A DNA stretch of 12,176 bases from an uncultured bacterium (GCA_965612795.1 CBFDTI010000036.1:1-12176), one strand, 5' to 3'. Positions 1 to 12,176 are shown, counted from the stretch's first letter. Notes: generated by a model not told the origin, from the letters alone. Made by a program: numbers and translations.

Positions 1-833
1 AACCTATCTATATCCTTACGTGACATCTGACGGCCCATCAACTTCAATATTCGGGTGGATACATGTTGTATAGGGATATGCAAGTAAGATGCAAGCTTGG
101 GATGATCGTTTACAAGCTTTACGAGTTCAACTGTTACATCAGTTGGATGCACGTATAGAAGCCGTAATAGATATAAGCCTGGCAATTCAGCTAATCGTTC
201 CACCAACTGCAACAGATGTGGTCTCCCATACAAGTCCTCTCCATAGGATGTGAGGTCCTGTGCTACAAGTATGATTTCCCTGACACCAGACTCTATAAGT
301 TGTGTCGCCTCATGTATTATGGAGTTTATGGGTTTGCTCCTTAACTTACCTTTTATCTGTGGTATGGTGCAGAAAGTGCAGTCACGGTTGCATCCCCTGG
401 ATATCTCAATATATGCGTATGGATAAGTATCTAACCGCTTTCTGGGCAAATAATCGTAACGCGTAACCGTATGTAGGGGTAACACTGGGGGTGTATCACC
501 ATAAAGTATAGCATTGAATATACCCTTGAGATCTTCCTGGCTGGTTGCTATAATGTTTGTGTTATGGTTGAAGGGGTTGCAGCCGTATCTTTCGGGTAAA
601 CAACCGGTTACTATTATTTTCTTGTGTGGATACTTTTGACGTAAGGTATGTATTCTTTCACGTGACTCAAGTTCGGCATCCTTTATGAATGCACAGGTGT
701 TGATTATCAACACATCCGCTATTTGGGGTGAATCCACAACTTTTAATCCTTTAGTTTCGAGATAATGGGCGATTATTTCACTACCTACGATGTTACGTGG
801 ACACCCCAATGTCTCAATGTATACGCGTATCAC
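1..833 (-). CDS. rimO: Ribosomal protein S12 methylthiotransferase RimO (radical SAM), truncated by the window edge
   Basis: Absent from the ORF track; translated by hand. GTG at 833-831 gives [14 protein letters not shown] (LGCxxN), then [23 protein letters not shown], radical-[23 protein letters not shown] (CxxxCxxC), [20 protein letters not shown] and YLHIPIQH. LGCPxN, AQD and RLLY favour RimO over MiaB/MtaB. Overlaps the gyrA 3' end by 20 nt. Confidence 0.88.
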
Positions 834-3219
834 CTGAGTTATGGAGGGCTACAACCTTAATGACTTTATCGTCTTCGTTAAGCCTTATCACACGTGTACC
901 ACGGGTGGCTCTACCCTGGATGGTAAGTTGCGTTATATCCATACGTATGATGTAACCACGTTCGGTGAGCACAAAGATATGATCGCCAGGATACACGAGC
1001 TCACCACCACCTACTTCTCCCTTTATTCCTATTATGCCCTGACCACCGCGGTGCATCTTACGGTAATCTTTCACTGGAGTAAGTTTACCATACCCGTGTT
1101 GCGTGAGTAGGAGTAGGTAACCGTCCTCGCTATGTGAGACAAGGCCTAACTTCACGGAGTCACCTTCCCTGAGCCGTATCCCACGTACACCATGGGCGTA
1201 ACGGCTGAGGTTACGTAATTCGCTGCTGTCGAAACGTACAACTTTACCGTGGGTGGTTACTATCAAGAGATCATCACCCTCTTTGAATGGTACCACCGCG
1301 CATAATGTATCATCCGGCTGTACCCGTATGCCGATTATGCCGCTACGGGTGATGTTGTTGAATGCCTCTATCGGGACACGCTTCACCAACCCACGTTGTG
1401 TCACGAGTAACAGTTGGTATCCATCTTTTGGATAGGGGAATATTGCGATGATGTTTTCTTCTTTACCGATATTAAGTAGTTGAGCGATGGGTTTGCCACG
1501 TCCACCTTTGCTGGTAAGCGGTATTTCATATGTGTTTATAGCGTAAGCCTTACCCTTATCGGTAAATATAAGGAGACGGCCGAGTGAGAACGCGACCGTA
1601 CCTGTAATCGTACGGTCTTCTACGGTGAGCTCTATGCCACGTGCACCTTTGCCGCCACGTTGTTGTTCTTTATACTCGTCGAGCGGTGTACGTTTAATGT
1701 ACCCTCTACGGGTGACGGTTACAAACTCGTAACGTTTGGGGATTAGATCTTCGATATTGAATTCGTGTGATGCTTCTGTTATCTTAGTACGTCGTGCGTC
1801 TGCATATTTTTTGCGTATATCCAATAGCTCTTTTTTCACCTCCTGCATGATGTTAGCTCTTGATGCGAGTATCTCTCTGTAGCGGGTAATTTCGAGCTGC
1901 AACTGCTGCAGTTCGTTGTCTAACTTTTCGCGTTCAAGATGGGTTAATCTAGCTAATCGCATTTCCAAAATTGCATGTGTCTGTTTGGGGGTGAGGTTAA
2001 ACCTCTCTCCCAACGTCTTCTCTGCGGTGGCAATATCGGGAGCTCCTTTTATTATGGAGACTACTTCGTCGATATGATCAAGTGCGATACGTAAACCCTC
2101 AACAATGTGTAACCTATCTTCTGCTTTCTTTAGATCGTGTTGGGTGCGACGTTTCACCACATCATGACGATGTTCGAGGAAATCTGTCAATATCTCCTTC
2201 AACGTGTATAGATGGGGTACGTTGTTTCTGAGTGCCAACAGGATTATGCCGTAAGTGGTTTGTAGCGGTGTGTGCATGTATAACTTGTTAAGCACAATTT
2301 CGGGTTCAATATCCTTGCGTAGCTCGATGGCTACGCGGATACCTTCGCGGTCGGATTCGTCCCTTATGTCGATGATACCCTCTATTACCTTGTTTTTGAC
2401 CAGCTCCGCTATGCGTTCGATGAGCAACGCTTTGTTTATCTGATAAGGGATCTCGCGTATGTAGATGTAATTTTTGCGTTTATCGGTGACGATTTCAGTT
2501 TTACCACGTAGGATGATCTTACCCTTACCGGTTTTGTATGCCTGTAGTATACCGGATGTACCTATAATTTCGCCACCCGTTGGGAAGTCGGGCCCTTTAA
2601 TGTAGTGGGTTAGATCTTCAATGGTTAGCTCTGGGTTATCGATAAGCGCTACAAGTGCATCTATGACTTCACCTAAATTATGTGGTGGTATGTTTGTGGC
2701 CATACCCACAGCAATACCAGAGGCACCGTTTATCAGCAGGTTCGGTATTTTGGCAGGCAAGACCTGTGGCTCTTGGAGCTTACCGTCGAAGTTCGGCATA
2801 AATGGTACGGTATCTTTTTCGATGTCACGTAGCATCTCCTCGGCTATTTCGCTCAACCGTGCCTCGGTGTATCGGTACGCGGCGGGTGCGTCACCGTCGA
2901 CCGACCCGAAGTTGCCCTGCCCCTGTACTAAAGGGTAACGTAGTGAGAAATCCTGTGCCATACGGACGAGTGCATCGTATACAGCCATATCGCCATGTGG
3001 ATGGTACTTGCCGAGTACCTCGCCGATGATGGTGGCCGACTTTTTGAATGGCCTATTATGTAACAGGCCTAACCCCCACATAGCGTAGAGGATACGGCGG
3101 TGGACGGGTTTCAACCCATCACGTGCATCGGGTAGAGCACGCCCTATTATTACGCTCATGGCGTAGCTGAGGTAAGAGCGCTGCATCTCATCTTCTATAG
3201 GAACATATTCTATTGCCAT
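814..3219 (-). CDS. gyrA: DNA gyrase subunit A
   Basis: [22 protein letters not shown], catalytic AAYRY (Tyr117), [14 protein letters not shown], beta-pinwheel C-terminal repeats and a GyrA-box QQRGGKG (nt 1645-1665), which separates GyrA from ParC. Confidence 0.97.
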
Positions 3220-3227
3220 CTTATTTT

Positions 3228-3255
3228 AAGATAAAGCGAAATCCTTATAAGTCAA
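3228..3255 (-). promoter_or_regulatory. Putative sigma70 promoter of gyrA (TTGACT-N16-TATCTT)
   Basis: -35 TTGACT at 3255-3250 and -10 TATCTT at 3233-3228 in the 58-bp holB-gyrA gap; the ATG follows 8 nt after the -10; closely matches the element upstream of gyrB. Confidence 0.7.
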
Positions 3256-3277
3256 CAATTTAGGTGCGATAATGGGA

Positions 3278-4191
3278 TCATAAAGTGAGCGAGATGTAGT
3301 ACCATAATAGGTCGGGAGCTACATTATATTTCAAGTGTGAGTGCACTTGTTCGCAGAGTTTGATACCTTTAAGCAACCGATCAGTATCCCATGTACGTAA
3401 CTCGTCTGGTATGGGTGTGACACGTTTAACCCCATACTTTGTGAGTAACGCTGTACGAAGTAGTGACTCGACAGCATGTAGGAAATCGTCCAGCTCAATA
3501 CTGAGGTTATTAAGTAGCTTAAGGCGATCGCTTTTGGGCGAGATGAGAAATTTTGTTGCCAATGCTTCCTTTTCTTGTTGCTTACCTTCTATTATGTTTA
3601 ATGCGCGGGTGAGGCTACCTTCGGCACGTTCCACGATGAGTTTGAGCTCCTTCTCATGTAGGGGATAGTGGGTGCGAAGGTAGGTTGTGAGTTCGTGTTT
3701 TTCGATACGTCGGAATGGTATCTTGCGGGTACGTGACTTTATGGTGTCGGGTAACATATCTTCGCGTGAAGTTATAAGTATAAACGAAGTGCGTTCGGGG
3801 GGTTCCTCCAGTAGCTTGAGTAATGCGTTGGCTGCTTCCTGTGTCATTGTGTGTGCATCATCTATTATAAAGAACCTATGTGCTAAGCTGCTTAGGTAAG
3901 AAGCTTCTTCTTTGAGGTTACGAATTTGGTCAATGTGTATTGTACCTTTATCAGTAGGTGTCACGAGTACGACGTCGAGCGTTAGACCATCATCTATGAG
4001 CTTCGATATGCGGTGACCTGCCTCTTGGGGTAACCGATGGGTATTGACCAATTTAGCAAACTCCATGGCTAAGGTGCGTTTACCGACATGATCGGGACCG
4101 GTAAACAGATATGCGGTGGCTATTCTATCGGCTTGTATATCGCTGATAAGCATCTTCTTCGCAAGTTTATGGCCTACGACATTAGTGAATG

Positions 4192-4204
<13 letters not shown>
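3278..4204 (-). CDS. holB: DNA polymerase III subunit delta' (clamp loader)
   Basis: AYLFTGPDHVGK, IHIDQIR, IIDDAHTMTQEAANALLKLLEEPP and LPDTIKSRT. The 308-aa length and DDAH-M motif fit delta' rather than DnaX. Confidence 0.9.
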
Positions 4205-7147
<2,943 letters not shown>

Positions 7148-7227
7148 GTAAAATCATGTGTTAGGTTAAAGTGAAGGGGTACGTTCGACGGATGGATGAA
7201 CGTCAATCTATGGAATTTCCTGTTTTA

Positions 7228-7241
7228 TGTAAGCGCTTGTA
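7228..7241. promoter_or_regulatory. LacI-family/cre-like operator candidate TGTAAGCGCTTGTA
   Basis: Perfect AAGCGCTT core; 12/14 match to the symmetric cre-type sequence TGTAAGCGCTTACA; intergenic position. Confidence 0.35.
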
Positions 7242-7346
7242 GGGAAACTTCTGTACGGATCAAGATGATGTTATATATACAAAATGCTGGCACAGATGGG
7301 ATAGACTTAGAGGTTATAACCACTTTGGGGCTCGGTTATTTCCATA

Positions 7347-7373
7347 TTGACACACACTCTGGGTGGTTATTTT
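7347..7373 (+). promoter_or_regulatory. Putative promoter of the HD-leuCD-citDE-citF operon (TTGACA-N15-TATTTT)
   Basis: Consensus -35 TTGACA at 7347-7352 and TATTTT at 7368-7373, in the same GTTATTTTAT context as the gyrB -10. The spacer is only 15 bp. Confidence 0.5.
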
Positions 7374-7386
7374 ATCAACGCCAGAG

Positions 7387-7965
7387 ATGAAGCAAGTTAG
7401 CCTAAAAGAGAAAATCAAAGCATTATTTCGTAAGCAGTTGGAGCTCATCAGTGACCCCGCTTTACGTGATAAGGTAGTAAATGTGTGGGTAAACGCCATG
7501 AAGCTGGGTGGTTGGGCGGTTGACGATCTGGAGAATATACCGTTCACGTTGTTGGTTGATACCCAAGGTGTGAGCTTGATCGATCACACCATAGCGGTGA
7601 CCGAATCCGCGTATAGTATGGCGATCGCTATGCGTGAAACCTACGAGCGTGCGGGCTTCAAGCTAAACCTCGATTGGCTTGTAGCGGGTGCGTTGCTACA
7701 TGATGTAGGTAAGCTGCTGGAGATCGAGCAGTCCGGCACCTCGTATCGCAAATCCTATCGTGGCAAATGTTTACGTCATCCCATGTGGGGTGCTGTATTG
7801 GCGGCACAGGAGGGGCTACCTGATGAAGTGTGCAACATCATCGCTTACCACTCACGTGAGGGTGAAGGTAACCCCATTCGAATTGAAACCATCCTCATAC
7901 GGCATGCAGATTTTGCGTGTTTCGATCCTTTCGCCTTACGTGCAAAGAGTATGTTGGTGGAGTGA
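7387..7965 (+). CDS. HD-domain (HDIG-type) metal-dependent phosphohydrolase
   Basis: LIDHT...GALLHDVGK...RHP...IIAYH...RHAD gives the full H..HD..H..H..D pattern. ATG 7387 is preferred because the GTG at 7363 lies inside the putative promoter. The stop overlaps the next start (TGATG). Confidence 0.88.
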   Translation: MKQVSLKEKIKALFRKQLELISDPALRDKVVNVWVNAMKLGGWAVDDLENIPFTLLVDTQGVSLIDHTIAVTESAYSMAIAMRETYERAGFKLNLDWLVAGALLHDVGKLLEIEQSGTSYRKSYRGKCLRHPMWGAVLAAQEGLPDEVCNIIAYHSREGEGNPIRIETILIRHADFACFDPFALRAKSMLVE

Positions 7966-9761
7966 TGGGCCACACTATTATCGAAAAGATTATCGCCCGC
8001 CATTGTGGTAAACAGGTGCAACCCGGTGATATTGTTGATATGTTTATCGATACCCGGGTAGCACGTGACTTCGGTGGTGCCAATGTAGTCAAGCATCTCG
8101 AAACCCATGGCTTGGAGATCGACGACCCACAACGTACGTTCTTTACGTTTGATTGTAACCCAACAGGTTCGGATCAGAACTATGCTACTAACCAACATAT
8201 CTGTCGCGTATTTGCACGCAAACATGGTATCAAAGTCTACGACATAAATGCTGGTATAGGTACACATATTGCGATCGATGAAGGGTTGGTATCACCTGGT
8301 GATACGTTTGTATCCACGGATTCACACGCCAACATCGTTGGCGCTATAGGGGCATTGGGTCAGGGTATGGGCGATCTTGACATCGCATACGCGTTTGCTA
8401 AGGGGAGAGTATGGTTCAAGGTACCACCAACAATCAAGCTGATACTCAAAGGTAAACCACCTGCTAACGTAACTCCTAAGGATATAACGCTATTCCTTGT
8501 CAAACATTTTGGTGCATCGGGACTGCTGGGTTATGCGTGCGAAGTTTATGGCGACATAGTGGATGAACTCACCCTATCCGCACGTATCACGATAGCGTCG
8601 ATGGCTACCGAGATGAGTGCTATAGCTATGCTTTTTGCACCCAACAAACAGATACTGGAGTATTGTCGTAATGTAGCACAACGTGGGTTCACCCCAGTCT
8701 ATGCGGATGAAGATGCCAAGTACGAGGATGTCGTAACCCTGGATATATCCAGATTGGAACCCCTAATCGCGCAACCCGGTCGTCCCGACAATGTGGTACC
8801 AGTAGCTGAAGTGCAGGGTAAAAAGATCGATTCGGTATTCATCGGTTCGTGTACCAACGGCAGATACGAGGATATGGTGCAGGTAGCTAAAATACTGGAA
8901 GGTAGGAAAGTAGCCCCTGGTGTGGTGCTAAAGATAGTGCCATCAACCGATAAGATCTGGTATCGGTGTCTCGAAACTGGCATCTTTAAGATATTCAAAT
9001 CCGCAGGTGCGCTCATCGGTAACGCCGGGTGTGCGGGTTGTGCTGCGGGTCAGATCGGTCAAAACGGTCCAGGCGAAGTAACCGTAAGCACTGGTAACCG
9101 CAACTTCCCCGGCAAACAAGGTAAAGGTGAGGTATGGCTTACATCGCCAGCGACAGCTGCTGCATCTGCGGTTGCTGGATATATCACCACTGCTGATAAG
9201 ATACCCGACAAACCCGCAATCTTTATTGTACCGAAACCTAAACCTATTCCCAAAGCACGTTGTGAGGTAGGTGAACGTCCCACCCGCATACGTGGTAGAG
9301 TATGGGTGATACCTATCGACAACATCGACACCGATATGATATATCACAACCGCTACCTTACGGTGACCGATGTCAATCAGATGGGCCAGTACGCGTTTAG
9401 CAACCTACCAGGGTGGCAGGATTTACACAAAAAGGTGCAACCCGGTGACATAATTGTCACTGGTAGGAATTTCGGTTGCGGTAGCTCACGTCAACATGCG
9501 GTTGATTGCTTCCGTGCATTGAGGTTAGGTGCTATAATCGCAAAGTCGTTCGCCCCAATATATGAACGTAATGCGATAAATTCAGGCTTACCAATAATGG
9601 TGGCAGATCTCGACAACCTCAACTTAAAGGATGGTGATGAGCTTGAAATCGATTTCGTCACCGGTGAAATACGTAAGGTAGCCACTGGTGAAACCGTGCA
9701 TGGGGTGCCATTCTCTGAAATACAGTTATCAATTTACAAACGTGGTGGGTTGCTACCTTAA
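7965..9761 (+). CDS. Fused large+small subunit aconitase-family hydro-lyase (3-isopropylmalate dehydratase/homoaconitase-like), substrate unknown
   Basis: 598 aa from ATG 7965. LeuC-like part: MGHTIIEKI, TDSH, GSCTN (C296), CAGC (C356/C359), STGNRNF, SPATAAASA. Pro/Lys-rich linker, then LeuD-like part: GRVW, DNIDTD, GRNFGCGSSR, IAKSFAPIYERNAINSGLP, GGLL. Confidence 0.88.
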   Translation: MGHTIIEKIIARHCGKQVQPGDIVDMFIDTRVARDFGGANVVKHLETHGLEIDDPQRTFFTFDCNPTGSDQNYATNQHICRVFARKHGIKVYDINAGIGTHIAIDEGLVSPGDTFVSTDSHANIVGAIGALGQGMGDLDIAYAFAKGRVWFKVPPTIKLILKGKPPANVTPKDITLFLVKHFGASGLLGYACEVYGDIVDELTLSARITIASMATEMSAIAMLFAPNKQILEYCRNVAQRGFTPVYADEDAKYEDVVTLDISRLEPLIAQPGRPDNVVPVAEVQGKKIDSVFIGSCTNGRYEDMVQVAKILEGRKVAPGVVLKIVPSTDKIWYRCLETGIFKIFKSAGALIGNAGCAGCAAGQIGQNGPGEVTVSTGNRNFPGKQGKGEVWLTSPATAAASAVAGYITTADKIPDKPAIFIVPKPKPIPKARCEVGERPTRIRGRVWVIPIDNIDTDMIYHNRYLTVTDVNQMGQYAFSNLPGWQDLHKKVQPGDIIVTGRNFGCGSSRQHAVDCFRALRLGAIIAKSFAPIYERNAINSGLPIMVADLDNLNLKDGDELEIDFVTGEIRKVATGETVHGVPFSEIQLSIYKRGGLLP

Positions 9762-9781
9762 CACAAAAGTAACCAAAATTT

Positions 9782-9786
9782 GGAGG
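9782..9786 (+). promoter_or_regulatory. Shine-Dalgarno GGAGG of the citD-citE fusion
   Basis: GGAGG 4 nt upstream of ATG 9791. Confidence 0.7.
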
Positions 9787-9790
9787 CAAT

Positions 9791-10975
9791 ATGGAGGTTG
9801 CAGAAGTAGGTAGACGTGGCCCTGACATACGGGCAGATTGTTTCGTACATTTTGAGCTCAGACCCAGTGGTGGGTTGGATATCGAACTCAAAAGCAAAGT
9901 GGAATCGATGTATGGCGATTCCATACGTGGGTTGGTGACCGATATGTTGGAATATTTTGGTATCAAAAACGCATACATATATCTTGAGGATTATCGTGCA
10001 TTCCCGTGGGTATTGATGGCACGTATCGAGGCAGCGATCAAAAAATGTCTACCCGATATCGAGCTGGAATACCTACCTGATATGTTGCCACAAAACCTAT
10101 ACAAGAAGCCACGTGATACGTTTAGACGTACGCGGTTGTATGTACCGGGTGACCAACCTCGGCTTATCATCAACTGTGGGCTTTATAAACCCGATGGTAT
10201 AGTGCTCGACCTCGAAGATAGTGTAGCACCCGACCATAAGTTTGGTGCACGCTTCATGGTACGTAACGCATTACGGGCAGTTGACCTAATGGGTGCAGAA
10301 CGTATGGTACGTATCAACCAGTTACCTAATGGGTTGGACGACCTACCGTATGTGGTACCACATAACCTACATACGGTGTTGATACCCAAATGTGAATCCG
10401 GTGACCAGGTTCGACAGGTTGCCGATAAGGTTGATACATTGCGTAAGCAACACAAAATAGAAGATGAGATATACCTCATACCGATTATTGAGAGTGCAAT
10501 GGGTGTGATCAACGCATACGAGATAGCGAGTGCATCCCCACATGTGGTAGCATTAGCGGTGGGGTTGGAGGACCTAACCGCTGACATAGGGGCTGAACGT
10601 ACCAAAGAGGGTACGGAAACGTTGTTTGCACGTCAACAGATAGTTATCGCTGCACGTGCTGCTGGTGTACAGCCGCTCGATACGGTATATTCGGATGTCG
10701 AGGATTACGAAGGTTTACGTGCAAGCGTACGTGAAGCCAAACGTATGGGGTTTGAAGGCAAGGGATGTATCCACCCACTACAGGTTAGGGTGATACATGA
10801 GGAGTTCATGCCAACCCCTGAAGAGGTTGAAAAAGCACACCGTATAGTTGAGGCGATGGAGGAAGCCAAACGCAAAGGGTTGGGCGTGGTAGCACTTGGT
10901 ACGAAGATGATCGATCCACCCGTCGTCAAACGTGCACTTAGGGTGTTGAAGCTAAAGGAATTGTCCGAGAAATGA
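9791..10975 (+). CDS. citE: Citrate lyase gamma (ACP/CitD-like) - beta (citryl-CoA/ACP lyase, CitE) fusion protein
   Basis: aa 1-87 resemble CitD (IELKSKVESMYGDSIR, LEDYRAFPWVLMARIEAA). aa ~112-394 are CitE/HpcH family (RRTRLYVPG, DLEDSV, VRIN, IIESA, GLEDL, GFEGKGCIHP, MIDPP). Confidence 0.88.
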   Translation: MEVAEVGRRGPDIRADCFVHFELRPSGGLDIELKSKVESMYGDSIRGLVTDMLEYFGIKNAYIYLEDYRAFPWVLMARIEAAIKKCLPDIELEYLPDMLPQNLYKKPRDTFRRTRLYVPGDQPRLIINCGLYKPDGIVLDLEDSVAPDHKFGARFMVRNALRAVDLMGAERMVRINQLPNGLDDLPYVVPHNLHTVLIPKCESGDQVRQVADKVDTLRKQHKIEDEIYLIPIIESAMGVINAYEIASASPHVVALAVGLEDLTADIGAERTKEGTETLFARQQIVIAARAAGVQPLDTVYSDVEDYEGLRASVREAKRMGFEGKGCIHPLQVRVIHEEFMPTPEEVEKAHRIVEAMEEAKRKGLGVVALGTKMIDPPVVKRALRVLKLKELSEK

Positions 10976-10982
10976 GATAACC

Positions 10983-10989
10983 AGGAGGT
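10983..10989 (+). promoter_or_regulatory. Shine-Dalgarno AGGAGGT of citF
   Basis: AGGAGGT just upstream of ATG 10993. Confidence 0.75.
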
Positions 10990-10992
10990 TTT

Positions 10993-12176
10993 ATGGGCGG
11001 TAAAATCAACGCCGCTGGTAGATGGGTACCTGATGAGATTAACGGTAAACCTGTGATACCGTTTCAAGGTGTCGGCAAATATATACCAAAAGGTAGGAAA
11101 GCAGCACCTCCCATCGTAAGTTGTGCGAATTACCCTAAGGATGGAAACAAAGTTGTTAAATCACTACGCGAGGCGCTCGAACTCTGTGGCTTACGTGATG
11201 GTATGACGATAACGACACATCACCACTTCCGTAATGGTGATAAGCTTGCTAATAAATTGTTCGATATCATTGCTGAAATGGGGGTTAAGGACCTGGTATG
11301 GTACCCCAGTGCTGCATTCCCGTGTCATGAACCTATCATCAAGCATCTCAAGAGTGGTGTGATACATCATATCGAGGGTAGCCTTAATGGACCTTTGGGT
11401 GAGTTCTGCACATATGGTGGTATGCGTGGACAAGGTGTGTTACGTTCGCATGGTGGACGCTATCGTGCGATACAGGATGGTGAAGTACATGTTGACATAG
11501 CAATGATAGCTGCACCGACAGCTGATCCGTTCGGTAATGCCAACGCCCTATACGGTAAGTCGGCGTGTGGACTGCTGGGGTTTGCGCTCGCTGATGCACA
11601 GTACGCGGATAAGGTGATCATAGTGACTGATAATCTGGTACCATTCCCATGCATACCGTGGCAGATACATGGTAACTGGGTAGACTACGTGGTGGTGATG
11701 GACGATATCGGTGACCCCAGCAAGATCGTATCCGGTACCACTGTTATTACACGTAGCCCGGCAAGGTTGTTGATCGCTGAGTACACGGCAAGGTTTATCA
11801 AAGAGGCTGGCATAATGCGGGACGGGTTCTCGTTTCAAGCGGGTGCCGGCGGTACATCGCTCGCGTTTATACCGTATCTTAAGAAATACATGAAAGAGGC
11901 CGGTATCAAAGCACGTTGGGTACGTGGTGGTAGCACAAAGTATCTGGTGGAACTGCTCGAGGAGGGGCTTACGGACTACATACTGGATGGACAGACGTTC
12001 GACCTACATGGGGTGCGTTCGATGCGCGATAACCCCAACCACGTATGGACGTCACCGTTTACAAGCTACAACTACCACGGTAAGGGTAACTTTGCATCTA
12101 TGGTGGATGTGGTGGTACTGGGTGCCACTGAAGTGGATGTTAACTTCAACGCTAACGTGGTGACACACTCAGATGG
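10993..12176 (+). CDS. citF: Citrate lyase alpha chain (citrate CoA/ACP transferase), truncated by the window edge
   Basis: Absent from the ORF track; translated by hand. MGGKINAAGRWVP..., GLRDGMTITTHHHFRNGD, LRSHGGR, ADPFGNAN, GFSFQAGAGG, LDGQTFD and DVVVLGATEVDVNFNANVVTHSD are CitF signatures. Confidence 0.92.
   Translation, partial: MGGKINAAGRWVPDEINGKPVIPFQGVGKYIPKGRKAAPPIVSCANYPKDGNKVVKSLREALELCGLRDGMTITTHHHFRNGDKLANKLFDIIAEMGVKDLVWYPSAAFPCHEPIIKHLKSGVIHHIEGSLNGPLGEFCTYGGMRGQGVLRSHGGRYRAIQDGEVHVDIAMIAAPTADPFGNANALYGKSACGLLGFALADAQYADKVIIVTDNLVPFPCIPWQIHGNWVDYVVVMDDIGDPSKIVSGTTVITRSPARLLIAEYTARFIKEAGIMRDGFSFQAGAGGTSLAFIPYLKKYMKEAGIKARWVRGGSTKYLVELLEEGLTDYILDGQTFDLHGVRSMRDNPNHVWTSPFTSYNYHGKGNFASMVDVVVLGATEVDVNFNANVVTHSD

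Follow-up and report, generated by a model that had tools for sequence, protein, structure and literature searches.

The window analysed here, 12,176 bp of DNA from an uncultured bacterium, is a complete contig (C36) of assembly GCA_965612795.1, which we call G000 (1.42 Mb in 128 contigs, estimated 99.5% complete); nothing is readable past 12176. From position 7387 it carries four plus-strand genes, encoding an HD-domain protein, a fused aconitase-family protein that we call AcnX, a CitD–CitE fusion (CitDE) and a CitF-type citrate CoA-transferase. Gene content and order in related genomes indicate that what the contig shows is one half of a conserved module, which comprises an isocitrate dehydrogenase (IDH)-like enzyme (IsoDH_A), the HD protein, AcnX, a second, normal aconitase-family enzyme (LeuC_A and LeuD_A, together LeuCD_A) and a citrate-cleaving enzyme. 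We read this module, with a probability of roughly 0.5, as a 2-oxoglutarate/isocitrate/citrate segment that ends in CoA-dependent, carrier-independent citrate cleavage.

An earlier reading of this DNA made from the sequence alone (the sequence-only reading) had described four co-oriented genes with gaps of -1, 29 and 17 nt, and the open reading frames (ORFs) were confirmed at those positions. The TGA of the HD gene and the ATG of AcnX share one base; GGTGGAG precedes the AcnX start at 7965, and GGAGG-type ribosome sites precede the CitDE and CitF starts at 9791 and 10993. Pfam assigns PF01966 to the HD protein, PF00330 plus PF00694 to AcnX, PF06857 plus PF03328 to CitDE and PF04223 to CitF. 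Scored against Pfam and NCBIfam, the proteins of the operon missed all equivalog cut-offs and passed only broad subfamily models.

AcnX, the HD protein and their neighbourhoods

AcnX (7965..9761, plus strand, 598 aa) is a fused Fe-S protein with a LeuC-like part (aa 1 to ~410) followed by a LeuD-like part (aa ~441–598). Its best matches among solved structures are the M. jannaschii isopropylmalate/citramalate isomerase (4KP1/4NQY for the large subunit, 3VBA for the small) and homoaconitase (4KP2, 2PKP), with E values of 7.6e-84 for the large part and 3.2e-35 for the small part. AcnX belongs to the same fold family as these enzymes and has their cluster cysteines, D-S-H triad and GSSR motif, but it is a single chain and departs from them at several key positions, which we compared in the isomerase (4KP1/4NQY), E. 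coli LeuC and the two LeuC paralogues of G000. The family's catalytic Asp-His pair, Asp100-His101 in aconitase, is D63-C64 in AcnX (Cys64 codon, 8154–8156); D-H is present in all of the comparison proteins, and D-C only in AcnX. The NRNFxGR of the family is NRNFPGK (Lys384 codon, 9114–9116), N-M-x-x-E is S212-M-A-T-E, and R34-D-F-G(-G) stands where LeuC has H-D/E-x-T and aconitases have Q-D-x-T. The specificity loop reads HNRYLTVTD, as against YLV-YT and YLRTT in the M. jannaschii enzymes.

These changes are traits of a family and not accidents. Across 72 full-length homologues, each taken from a different species, FTFDCNP recurs in 66, with Thr in place of the Cys in four, Leu in one and no motif match in one; NRNFxGK recurs in 70 of the 72. 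The two fusions with altered key residues that the sequence-only reading had pointed out were thus borne out, by D63-C64 and K384 in AcnX and by Arg14-Ala15 in CitD (below). The cluster cysteines (C296, C356 and C359) are invariant in 32 sequences of 58–68% identity from across phyla, and so are the D-S-H triad and the Ser and Arg of the small-domain GSSR motif. A role for Cys64 as a fourth cluster ligand was set aside: Thr (4/72) or Leu (1/72) can stand there.

AcnX scored well below the equivalog models for isopropylmalate isomerases and homoaconitases (LEU2, 324.4 against a cut-off of 610.65; HacA_Meth, 303.7 against 550; leuC, 200.3 against 560.25; leud, 118.2 against 245.85) and below those for aconitases (NF005558, 334.5 against 612; TIGR01342, 306.9 against 719; the AcnA and AcnB models were further examples, missed by far). 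It passed only the subfamily models NF001614 (419.7 against 385) and TIGR01343 (397 against 385.7). With the His and Arg replaced, the equivalogs missed and two related genomes (G007 and G009) lacking a LeuA-type synthase, AcnX is no ordinary enzyme of leucine or lysine biosynthesis, in agreement with the sequence-only reading.

Eight loci from other families of the same phylum (L129–L136) encode unfused AcnX-like large and small subunits with NRNFIGK, in which the residue after the Asp is Cys, Leu or Thr where the motif was matched; the clade without the histidine thus extends beyond the fused form. The neighbours of these unfused genes include HD in 5/8, IsoDH_A in 3/8 and an ATP-citrate lyase (ACL)-like gene in 1/8.

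The HD protein (7387..7965, plus strand, 192 aa) matches PF01966 with 57.2 bits against a cut-off of 22, and its stop overlaps the AcnX start by 1 nt. GTG at 7363 is also open, but the orthologue alignment fits the ATG at 7387. All of the metal ligands are present in the H...HD...H...H...D pattern (H67, H105-D106, H131, H155 and D175), so the description of this protein as a non-canonical HD hydrolase does not stand; among the orthologues only the His of the HD dyad varies. The AlphaFold 2 model has a pLDDT of 96, and Foldseek returned HD-fold matches only, the best solved one being the HD domain of YhaM (TMq 0.63, 18% identity). A profile search of Protein Data Bank sequences gave no match at E <= 0.01, no NCBIfam equivalog cut-off was reached, and an Atlas lookup together with Foldseek returned generic HD clusters and folds, with no function assigned. 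The protein is thus confidently predicted to have an HD fold, without a close solved or named relative.

We surveyed AcnX relatives in one genome per species and found them in at least 500 species from more than ten phyla; neighbours were tallied in the best 80 loci, within ~9 kb of AcnX, from stop-to-stop ORFs labelled by phmmer. These loci, at 58–67% identity, come from metagenome-assembled genomes (MAGs) labelled Ignavibacteriae, Zixibacteria, Bacteroidales, Gemmatimonadota, Planctomycetota/Phycisphaerae, Acidobacteriota/Aminicenantes, WOR-3, Eisenbacteria, Fermentibacteria, Krumholzibacteriia, Myxococcota and Thermoplasmatota. HD is encoded directly upstream of AcnX in 34 of the 80, LeuC_A is found in 45 and IsoDH_A in 23; LeuD_A is found in 28, and others carry ~590-aa LeuC-like ORFs that are apparently LeuC–LeuD fusions. 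CitDE is present in 21 and CitF in 22 (one or both in 24), and in 12 of the 80 an ACL-like protein with a citrate-synthase domain (CoA_binding + Ligase_CoA + Citrate_synt) replaces CitDE/CitF beside the same IsoDH-HD-AcnX-LeuCD genes. Some kind of citrate-cleaving-type gene occurs in 33/80. Less common neighbours are AclB-like proteins (5/80), subunits of 2-oxoacid:ferredoxin oxidoreductase (OFOR; 5 loci each) and an AraC-type regulator (7/80). Seventeen of the loci, several of them on short contigs, have none of HD, LeuC_A, CitDE/CitF and IsoDH_A.

Among 41 searched relatives, the HD profile matched in 25, usually adjoining an AcnX-like gene, and this adjacency is kept across phyla, archaea included. 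Ten of the 41 have a close fused AcnX, and all ten have CitDE. The order is HD-AcnX-LeuC-LeuD-CitDE-CitF in four genomes of the same class as G000 (G007, G009, G013 and G017) and HD-AcnX-CitDE-CitF in a fifth (G016); in G023, from another family, IsoDH-HD-AcnX lies at one locus and LeuC-LeuD-CitDE-CitF-CstA at another. An Ignavibacteriae MAG (L050) has OFOR-IsoDH_A-HD-AcnX-LeuCD_A-CitDE-CitF, and two further loci (L054 and L061) keep this order but end in AclB-AclA-like genes; all three orders follow the reaction sequence of the reductive tricarboxylic acid (TCA) branch. With neighbours recurring across phyla, the arrangement goes far beyond chance. The sequence-only reading had treated the four genes as a pathway: their co-occurrence elsewhere, and the order kept across phyla, agree with it, but the unit extends beyond the operon and takes in the normal LeuCD and the IDH-like dehydrogenase, which in G000 lie on contigs C43 and C65.

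Two variant arrangements were also seen. In three Thermoplasmatota MAGs (L108, L115 and L123) the order is HD-CitF-AcnX with a ~260-aa protein, corresponding to the citrate-synthase-domain part of the ACL-like protein, between CitF and AcnX, and there is no CitDE. In Bacteroidales loci (for example L120, L099, L117 and L128), the AraC-type regulator precedes AcnX (7 loci) and a ~590-aa fused LeuC–LeuD follows it; the HD profile found no HD gene at those loci.

The loss of the general-acid His, which most of the 72 homologues have replaced by Cys, raises the question of whether AcnX is an enzyme at all. AcnX and HD could instead be a sensor or regulator, in the manner of aconitase/IRP1 moonlighting, or a cluster-repair pair, with LeuCD_A performing the whole isomerisation; M. 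jannaschii-type LeuCD/homoaconitase enzymes catalyse both half-reactions, and the 17 loci with none of the tallied partner genes, several of them short, would also fit. We consider this unlikely, as the invariance of the cluster cysteines, of the D-S-H triad and of the GSSR Ser and Arg in the 32 sequences is a pattern typical of a constrained enzyme, and AcnX sits inside operons between metabolic genes.

CitDE, CitF and the maturation genes

CitDE (9791..10975, plus strand, 394 aa) joins an acyl-carrier-protein-like CitD domain (aa 1 to ~95; PF06857) to a CitE/HpcH-type lyase (aa ~111–390; PF03328). CitF is represented by its first 394 aa (10993..12176, plus strand; ORF 10993-12174+), which match PF04223 with 352 bits over profile positions 2–345 of 466. 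It is cut by the contig end (orthologues have 514–527 aa), and no second CitF piece was found in the G000 assembly. The truncated copy scores 387.7 with TIGR01584 against a cut-off of 501.45, which the full-length G007 orthologue passes with 505.7; the CitD domain falls short of TIGR01608 (42.6 against 63.5).

In the CitD domain, Arg14-Ala15 (9830–9835) stands at E. coli Ser14-Gly15, in a gapless register anchored on Gly10 and Asp16. The serine that carries the prosthetic group, 2'-(5''-phosphoribosyl)-3'-dephospho-CoA, is Ser14 in E. coli and Klebsiella, and the window copy has no serine at either candidate position (14 or 15). Its RADC motif is common to the four closest protein clusters (P0001–P0004, 70–99% identity), which shows that the gene is kept up even where the serine has gone. 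The relatives have Arg, Ala or Ser at position 14, whereas Ala at position 15 is confined to the window and these nearest clusters.

The enzymes that would prime such a carrier also appear to be missing. The sequence-only reading had seen no citC, citG or citX in the visible part; there is none in the window, and PF01874, PF03802 and PF08218 gave no match over cut-off in any of five genomes (G000, G007, G009, G016 and G023), the E. coli control being detected. E. coli CitC, CitX and CitG had no match in the 80 AcnX loci. In 12/14 loci of the relatives, CitDE (or CitD plus CitE) is followed by CitF and then by unrelated genes (such as dnaE, CstA and AAA_33).

These absences bear on the plainest explanation, that of a normal citrate-fermentation lyase whose citC, citG and citX went unassembled, and which merely adjoins a LeuCD of leucine or lysine synthesis and an HD hydrolase with a housekeeping role, neither related to it. 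The contig does end inside citF with its downstream part unseen, and the assembly is in 128 pieces. However, the genome is 99.5% complete and, like four relatives, has no match to CitG, CitX or CitC; nothing cit-related follows CitF in those 12 of 14 loci; CitD has no carrier serine; in AcnX the catalytic His and Arg are gone and no equivalog cut-off is reached; and HD–AcnX adjacency persists across phyla and into archaea. We regard this explanation as largely refuted and very improbable.

The closest textbook system is the citCDEFXG locus of E. coli and Klebsiella (EC 4.1.3.6; partial reactions 2.8.3.10 and 4.1.3.34), which has homologous CitD, CitE and CitF in the same D-E-F order. The chemistry is probably alike, with transfer of CoA (or a thiol) to citrate followed by retro-Claisen cleavage. 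Here, however, CitD is fused to CitE, Arg-Ala replaces Ser14-Gly15, and both CitE and CitD fall below the equivalogs; the neighbours are aconitase-family and HD genes, whereas the enteric locus has citC, citT and the dpiAB regulators, and G000 has no CitC, CitX or CitG.

A nearer relative comes from Ignavibacterium album, whose CitF and CitE/CitD fusion (IALB_1146/IALB_1147) were proposed to form a citrate lyase that needs no ATP and could close a reverse TCA cycle (PMC3362086, 2012). The architecture of the fusion is the same, and P0052, as the I. album protein is called here, shows 62% identity over 98% of the window query, but it keeps a Ser before the conserved Asp (IRSDC) where the window has Ala. 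The passages of that paper on this lyase make no mention of an aconitase-family partner, an HD gene or missing maturation genes, and the words "aconitase" and "aconitate" occur 0 times in its main text. In PMC11237513, the sole relevant mention in its passages is of generic LeuCD/aconitase fusions in Archaea. Full-text searches, which leave most subscription journals outside, found no paper that deals with an AcnX clade devoid of the histidine or with the HD protein that accompanies it, and none reporting that these lineages have lost the carrier serine or lack citC, citG and citX. The claim of an undescribed pathway therefore stands in part: we found no printed description of the module, AcnX and HD included, but its CitE/CitD fusion with CitF was already known.

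Two side observations concern the fusion. At locus L025 (G018:C11, 8429–13032), ~1.8 kb with two N6/N4 DNA methylase fragments and an ORF of no assigned function separate CitDE from CitF, which looks like an insertion into the operon. Two loci (L031 and L032, in G033 and G027) encode distant CitD–CitE-like fusions (27–29% identity) without CitF, near an acetokinase-family gene, a phosphofructokinase and a glycosyltransferase, a setting of the fusion that differs from that in the window.

Substrate and direction

In the favoured reading, IsoDH_A (contig C43) would convert 2-oxoglutarate, CO2 and NAD(P)H to isocitrate, LeuCD_A (C43/C65) would take isocitrate to cis-aconitate, and AcnX together with HD would take cis-aconitate to citrate. 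CitF would then form citryl-CoA and acetate from citrate and acetyl-CoA, and the CitE part of CitDE would cleave citryl-CoA to oxaloacetate and acetyl-CoA. With no carrier serine and no CitC, CitG or CitX in G000, the lyase would have to use free CoA thioesters, acetyl-CoA being catalytic. Isolated alpha and beta subunits of citrate lyase do act on acetyl-CoA and citryl-CoA in vitro. The net reaction would be ATP-free and favour cleavage, and could serve to ferment glutamate or 2-oxoglutarate in a redox-sparing way, or else to cleave citrate at the end of a reductive TCA branch. In that branch, ATP-citrate lyase, or citryl-CoA synthetase with citryl-CoA lyase, holds the pathway place proposed for CitDE/CitF; unlike ATP-citrate lyase, the version in the window would use no ATP and release acetate, not acetyl-CoA.

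Which acids the module handles, how AcnX and LeuCD_A divide the half-reactions, what HD does and which way the segment runs are inferred from gene content and residues. The sequence-only reading had a single hydratase make the acid, which no longer seems apt: AcnX probably divides the isomerisation with a second enzyme of the aconitase family. Such sharing has precedents. Fungi and Thermus turn homocitrate into homoisocitrate with aconitase plus homoaconitase, and the methylcitrate cycle uses AcnD, PrpF and AcnB; in these cases two hydro-lyases, or a hydro-lyase and a small helper, share one hydroxyl shift, which would account for the joint occurrence of AcnX, HD and a normal LeuCD. We know of no HD-fold helper in these systems, nor of a dehydratase among them that lacks the catalytic His.

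The weighing of substrates turns on what else G000 and its relatives encode. A genome check for citrate synthase and aconitase, which the sequence-only reading had proposed, found no PF00285 citrate synthase in G000 and three large parts of the aconitase family, besides two Iso_dh genes. One set, which we call A, belongs to the module: on C43 the IDH-like gene adjoins a LeuC with S-H-E-N. In the other, set B, an Iso_dh gene with the isocitrate-type S-x-N motif lies directly upstream of a divergent gene of the LeuA/homocitrate-synthase family (C38; L042:2651-5315), while C35 encodes a LeuC with the aconitase-type Q-D motif and C15 a LeuD with an Arg-bearing loop. The LeuA-family gene, whose best NCBIfam score (160 bits) is far below all cut-offs, may encode a Re-citrate-synthase-type enzyme. 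The G016 counterparts of set B form one cluster with citrate synthase and malate dehydrogenase. Set B therefore looks, from its motifs and neighbours, like an ordinary oxidative branch to 2-oxoglutarate, separate from set A with its HD, AcnX and CitDE–CitF. In G007, G009 and G041 (the last via L054), AcnX and LeuC_A are the only PF00330 matches, so any aconitase activity there must come from them. PF00285 is likewise absent from G007, G009 and G023, and no HMGL-type synthase was found in G007, G009 or G016. With the queries used, tblastn did not find malate dehydrogenase, malic enzyme or CstA in G000, which is not proof of absence.

Taken together, the OFOR and ACL-like neighbourhoods and the genomes whose only aconitases are those of the module make citrate, isocitrate and 2-oxoglutarate the most economical substrates. 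Several points weigh against this. IsoDH_A and its orthologues have Y-x-S-P-I-V-x-L/M-R, with Ile at the position of E. coli IDH Asn115, in 23/23 loci, and the conserved YTYTC loop of LeuD_A has no counterpart to the Arg in YLRT, the loop of M. jannaschii homoaconitase. Both G000 and G016 have the second set, and for a 1.4-Mb genome to keep two sets for a single substrate would be odd. As to the cleavage step, Ser15 beside the conserved Asp is kept in 113/120 database relatives and 20/20 locus copies, so that in most relatives the carrier may still be loaded by some other enzyme, and CitE misses its equivalog (TIGR01588, 269.7 against 443.4), matching only the broad PF03328 family.

The first of these points suit the main rival, which keeps the logic of the module and changes the acid: it would shorten a different 2-oxo acid by one carbon, either 2-oxoadipate via homoisocitrate and homocitrate to 2-oxoglutarate plus acetate (a reverse aminoadipate route for lysine breakdown) or 2-oxobutyrate via methylmalate and citramalate to pyruvate plus acetate. 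Si-face lyases of the CitE/citrate-synthase type need the 2-alkylmalate enantiomer opposite to the product of ordinary LeuCD/homoaconitase enzymes, and a chiral 2-alkylmalate would thus give a reason for an AcnX with rebuilt acid/base residues, a need that prochiral citrate does not create; this argument is one of textbook stereochemistry. Homoisocitrate dehydrogenases are among the best solved and NCBIfam matches of IsoDH_A, which lacks Asn115; LeuD_A is closest to the small subunit of the M. jannaschii isopropylmalate/citramalate isomerase; and the complete second sets of G000 and G016 resemble the true citrate/isocitrate enzymes. An aldehyde dehydrogenase lies beside CitDE–CitF in G036 and an aminotransferase near IsoDH-HD-AcnX in G023. 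PMC4682846, moreover, treats CitDEF homologues of clostridial glutamate-fermentation clusters as (S)-citramalate lyases, although their annotation is citrate lyase. On the other side, the module stands in reductive TCA order with ACL-like genes (12 loci) and OFOR (5 loci), and G007, G009 and G041 have no further aconitase-family gene. Thermus homoisocitrate dehydrogenase also has Ile at that position and uses isocitrate well. The residues that separate the IsoDH types (S-P-I against S-x-N) and the LeuD loops leave the substrate assignment ambiguous, and we regard another acid as possible but rather doubtful.

The absence of PF00285 from G000, G007, G009 and G023, and of an HMGL-type synthase from G007, G009 and G016, could also suggest that the segment runs the other way: CitE would condense acetyl-CoA with oxaloacetate, CitF would pass CoA to acetate, and citrate would go on to 2-oxoglutarate for glutamate. 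The sequence-only reading had allowed for such a synthase-like direction. We rate it low because the net reaction conserves the thioester and cleavage is favoured by the equilibrium; with a constant near 1 M, acetate plus oxaloacetate to citrate would lie far on the cleavage side at physiological concentrations. In addition, G016 has its citrate synthase cluster besides the module, G000 has the LeuA-family synthase beside the S-x-N IDH, and the partner of the module in other species is an ACL-like enzyme. An anabolic role thus seems decidedly unlikely.

Beyond the segment itself, we tentatively propose that AcnX and HD may be a new two-protein hydro-lyase that works without the catalytic His and handles the citrate side of the aconitase reaction (or an enantiomer-specific counterpart for homocitrate- or citramalate-type acids); HD would then do something else than hydrolyse phosphoesters. 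The pair could join with LeuCD_A, IsoDH_A and a CitDE–CitF lyase that needs neither carrier nor CitC/G/X in a so far unrecognised route that shortens a 2-oxo acid by one carbon and releases acetate without spending ATP. At least 500 bacterial and archaeal species could use it to ferment glutamate or lysine, or to end the reductive TCA cycle in a variant way.

If the citrate reading is right, many uncultured anaerobes (WOR-3-like bacteria, Ignavibacteria, Bacteroidales, Acidobacteriota, Planctomycetota, Thermoplasmatota and others) hold a citrate/2-oxoglutarate segment that current annotation files under leucine-biosynthesis genes and "citrate lyase", so that reconstructions miss a fermentation or carbon-fixation branch. 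It would give the 2012 idea of an ATP-independent citrate lyase closing the reverse TCA cycle a concrete test, present an aconitase-family enzyme working without its general-acid histidine and paired with an HD protein, and amount to a citrate lyase rid of its prosthetic arm and three maturation enzymes. The module is widespread, mis-annotated and directly testable.

Transcription and the left flank

Contigs of four public sequencing runs (two from DNA, two from an RNA library) match the operon and come loose at 7338–7347, continuing into unrelated sequence. Since several runs diverge just upstream of ~7341, the left edge of the operon, at its junction with gyrB, is strain-variable. In one marine-sediment RNA library, a 3,054-nt contig of a 96%-identical strain spans 7341–10193 (HD, AcnX and the start of CitDE) and a 2,008-nt contig spans 10763–12176 and extends 594 nt past 12176, so that the contigs bridge HD/AcnX/CitDE and CitDE/CitF. 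They are a weak hint of operon transcription, not proof, because DNA carry-over is possible in such libraries. We attach no meaning to the bins at 10330–10669 that are uncovered in X18.

The operon and gyrB, which lies on the minus strand, diverge from an intergenic region at 7103..7386, in which related strains depart from the window upstream of ~7341. An Rfam scan of the leader (7000–7500) gave no match, and a promoter/terminator scan did no better on it than on shuffles, promoter-like sites being no commoner. The left part of the window is coded on the minus strand and holds genes for a MiaB/RimO-like radical-SAM protein, gyrA, a holB-like protein, an M23 peptidase and gyrB; within 814–7102, the peptidase (which has a long coiled-coil N-terminus) and the holB-like gene lie between gyrB and gyrA. 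A plus-strand ORF antisense to the peptidase gene (4382–4840, 152 aa) is probably spurious.

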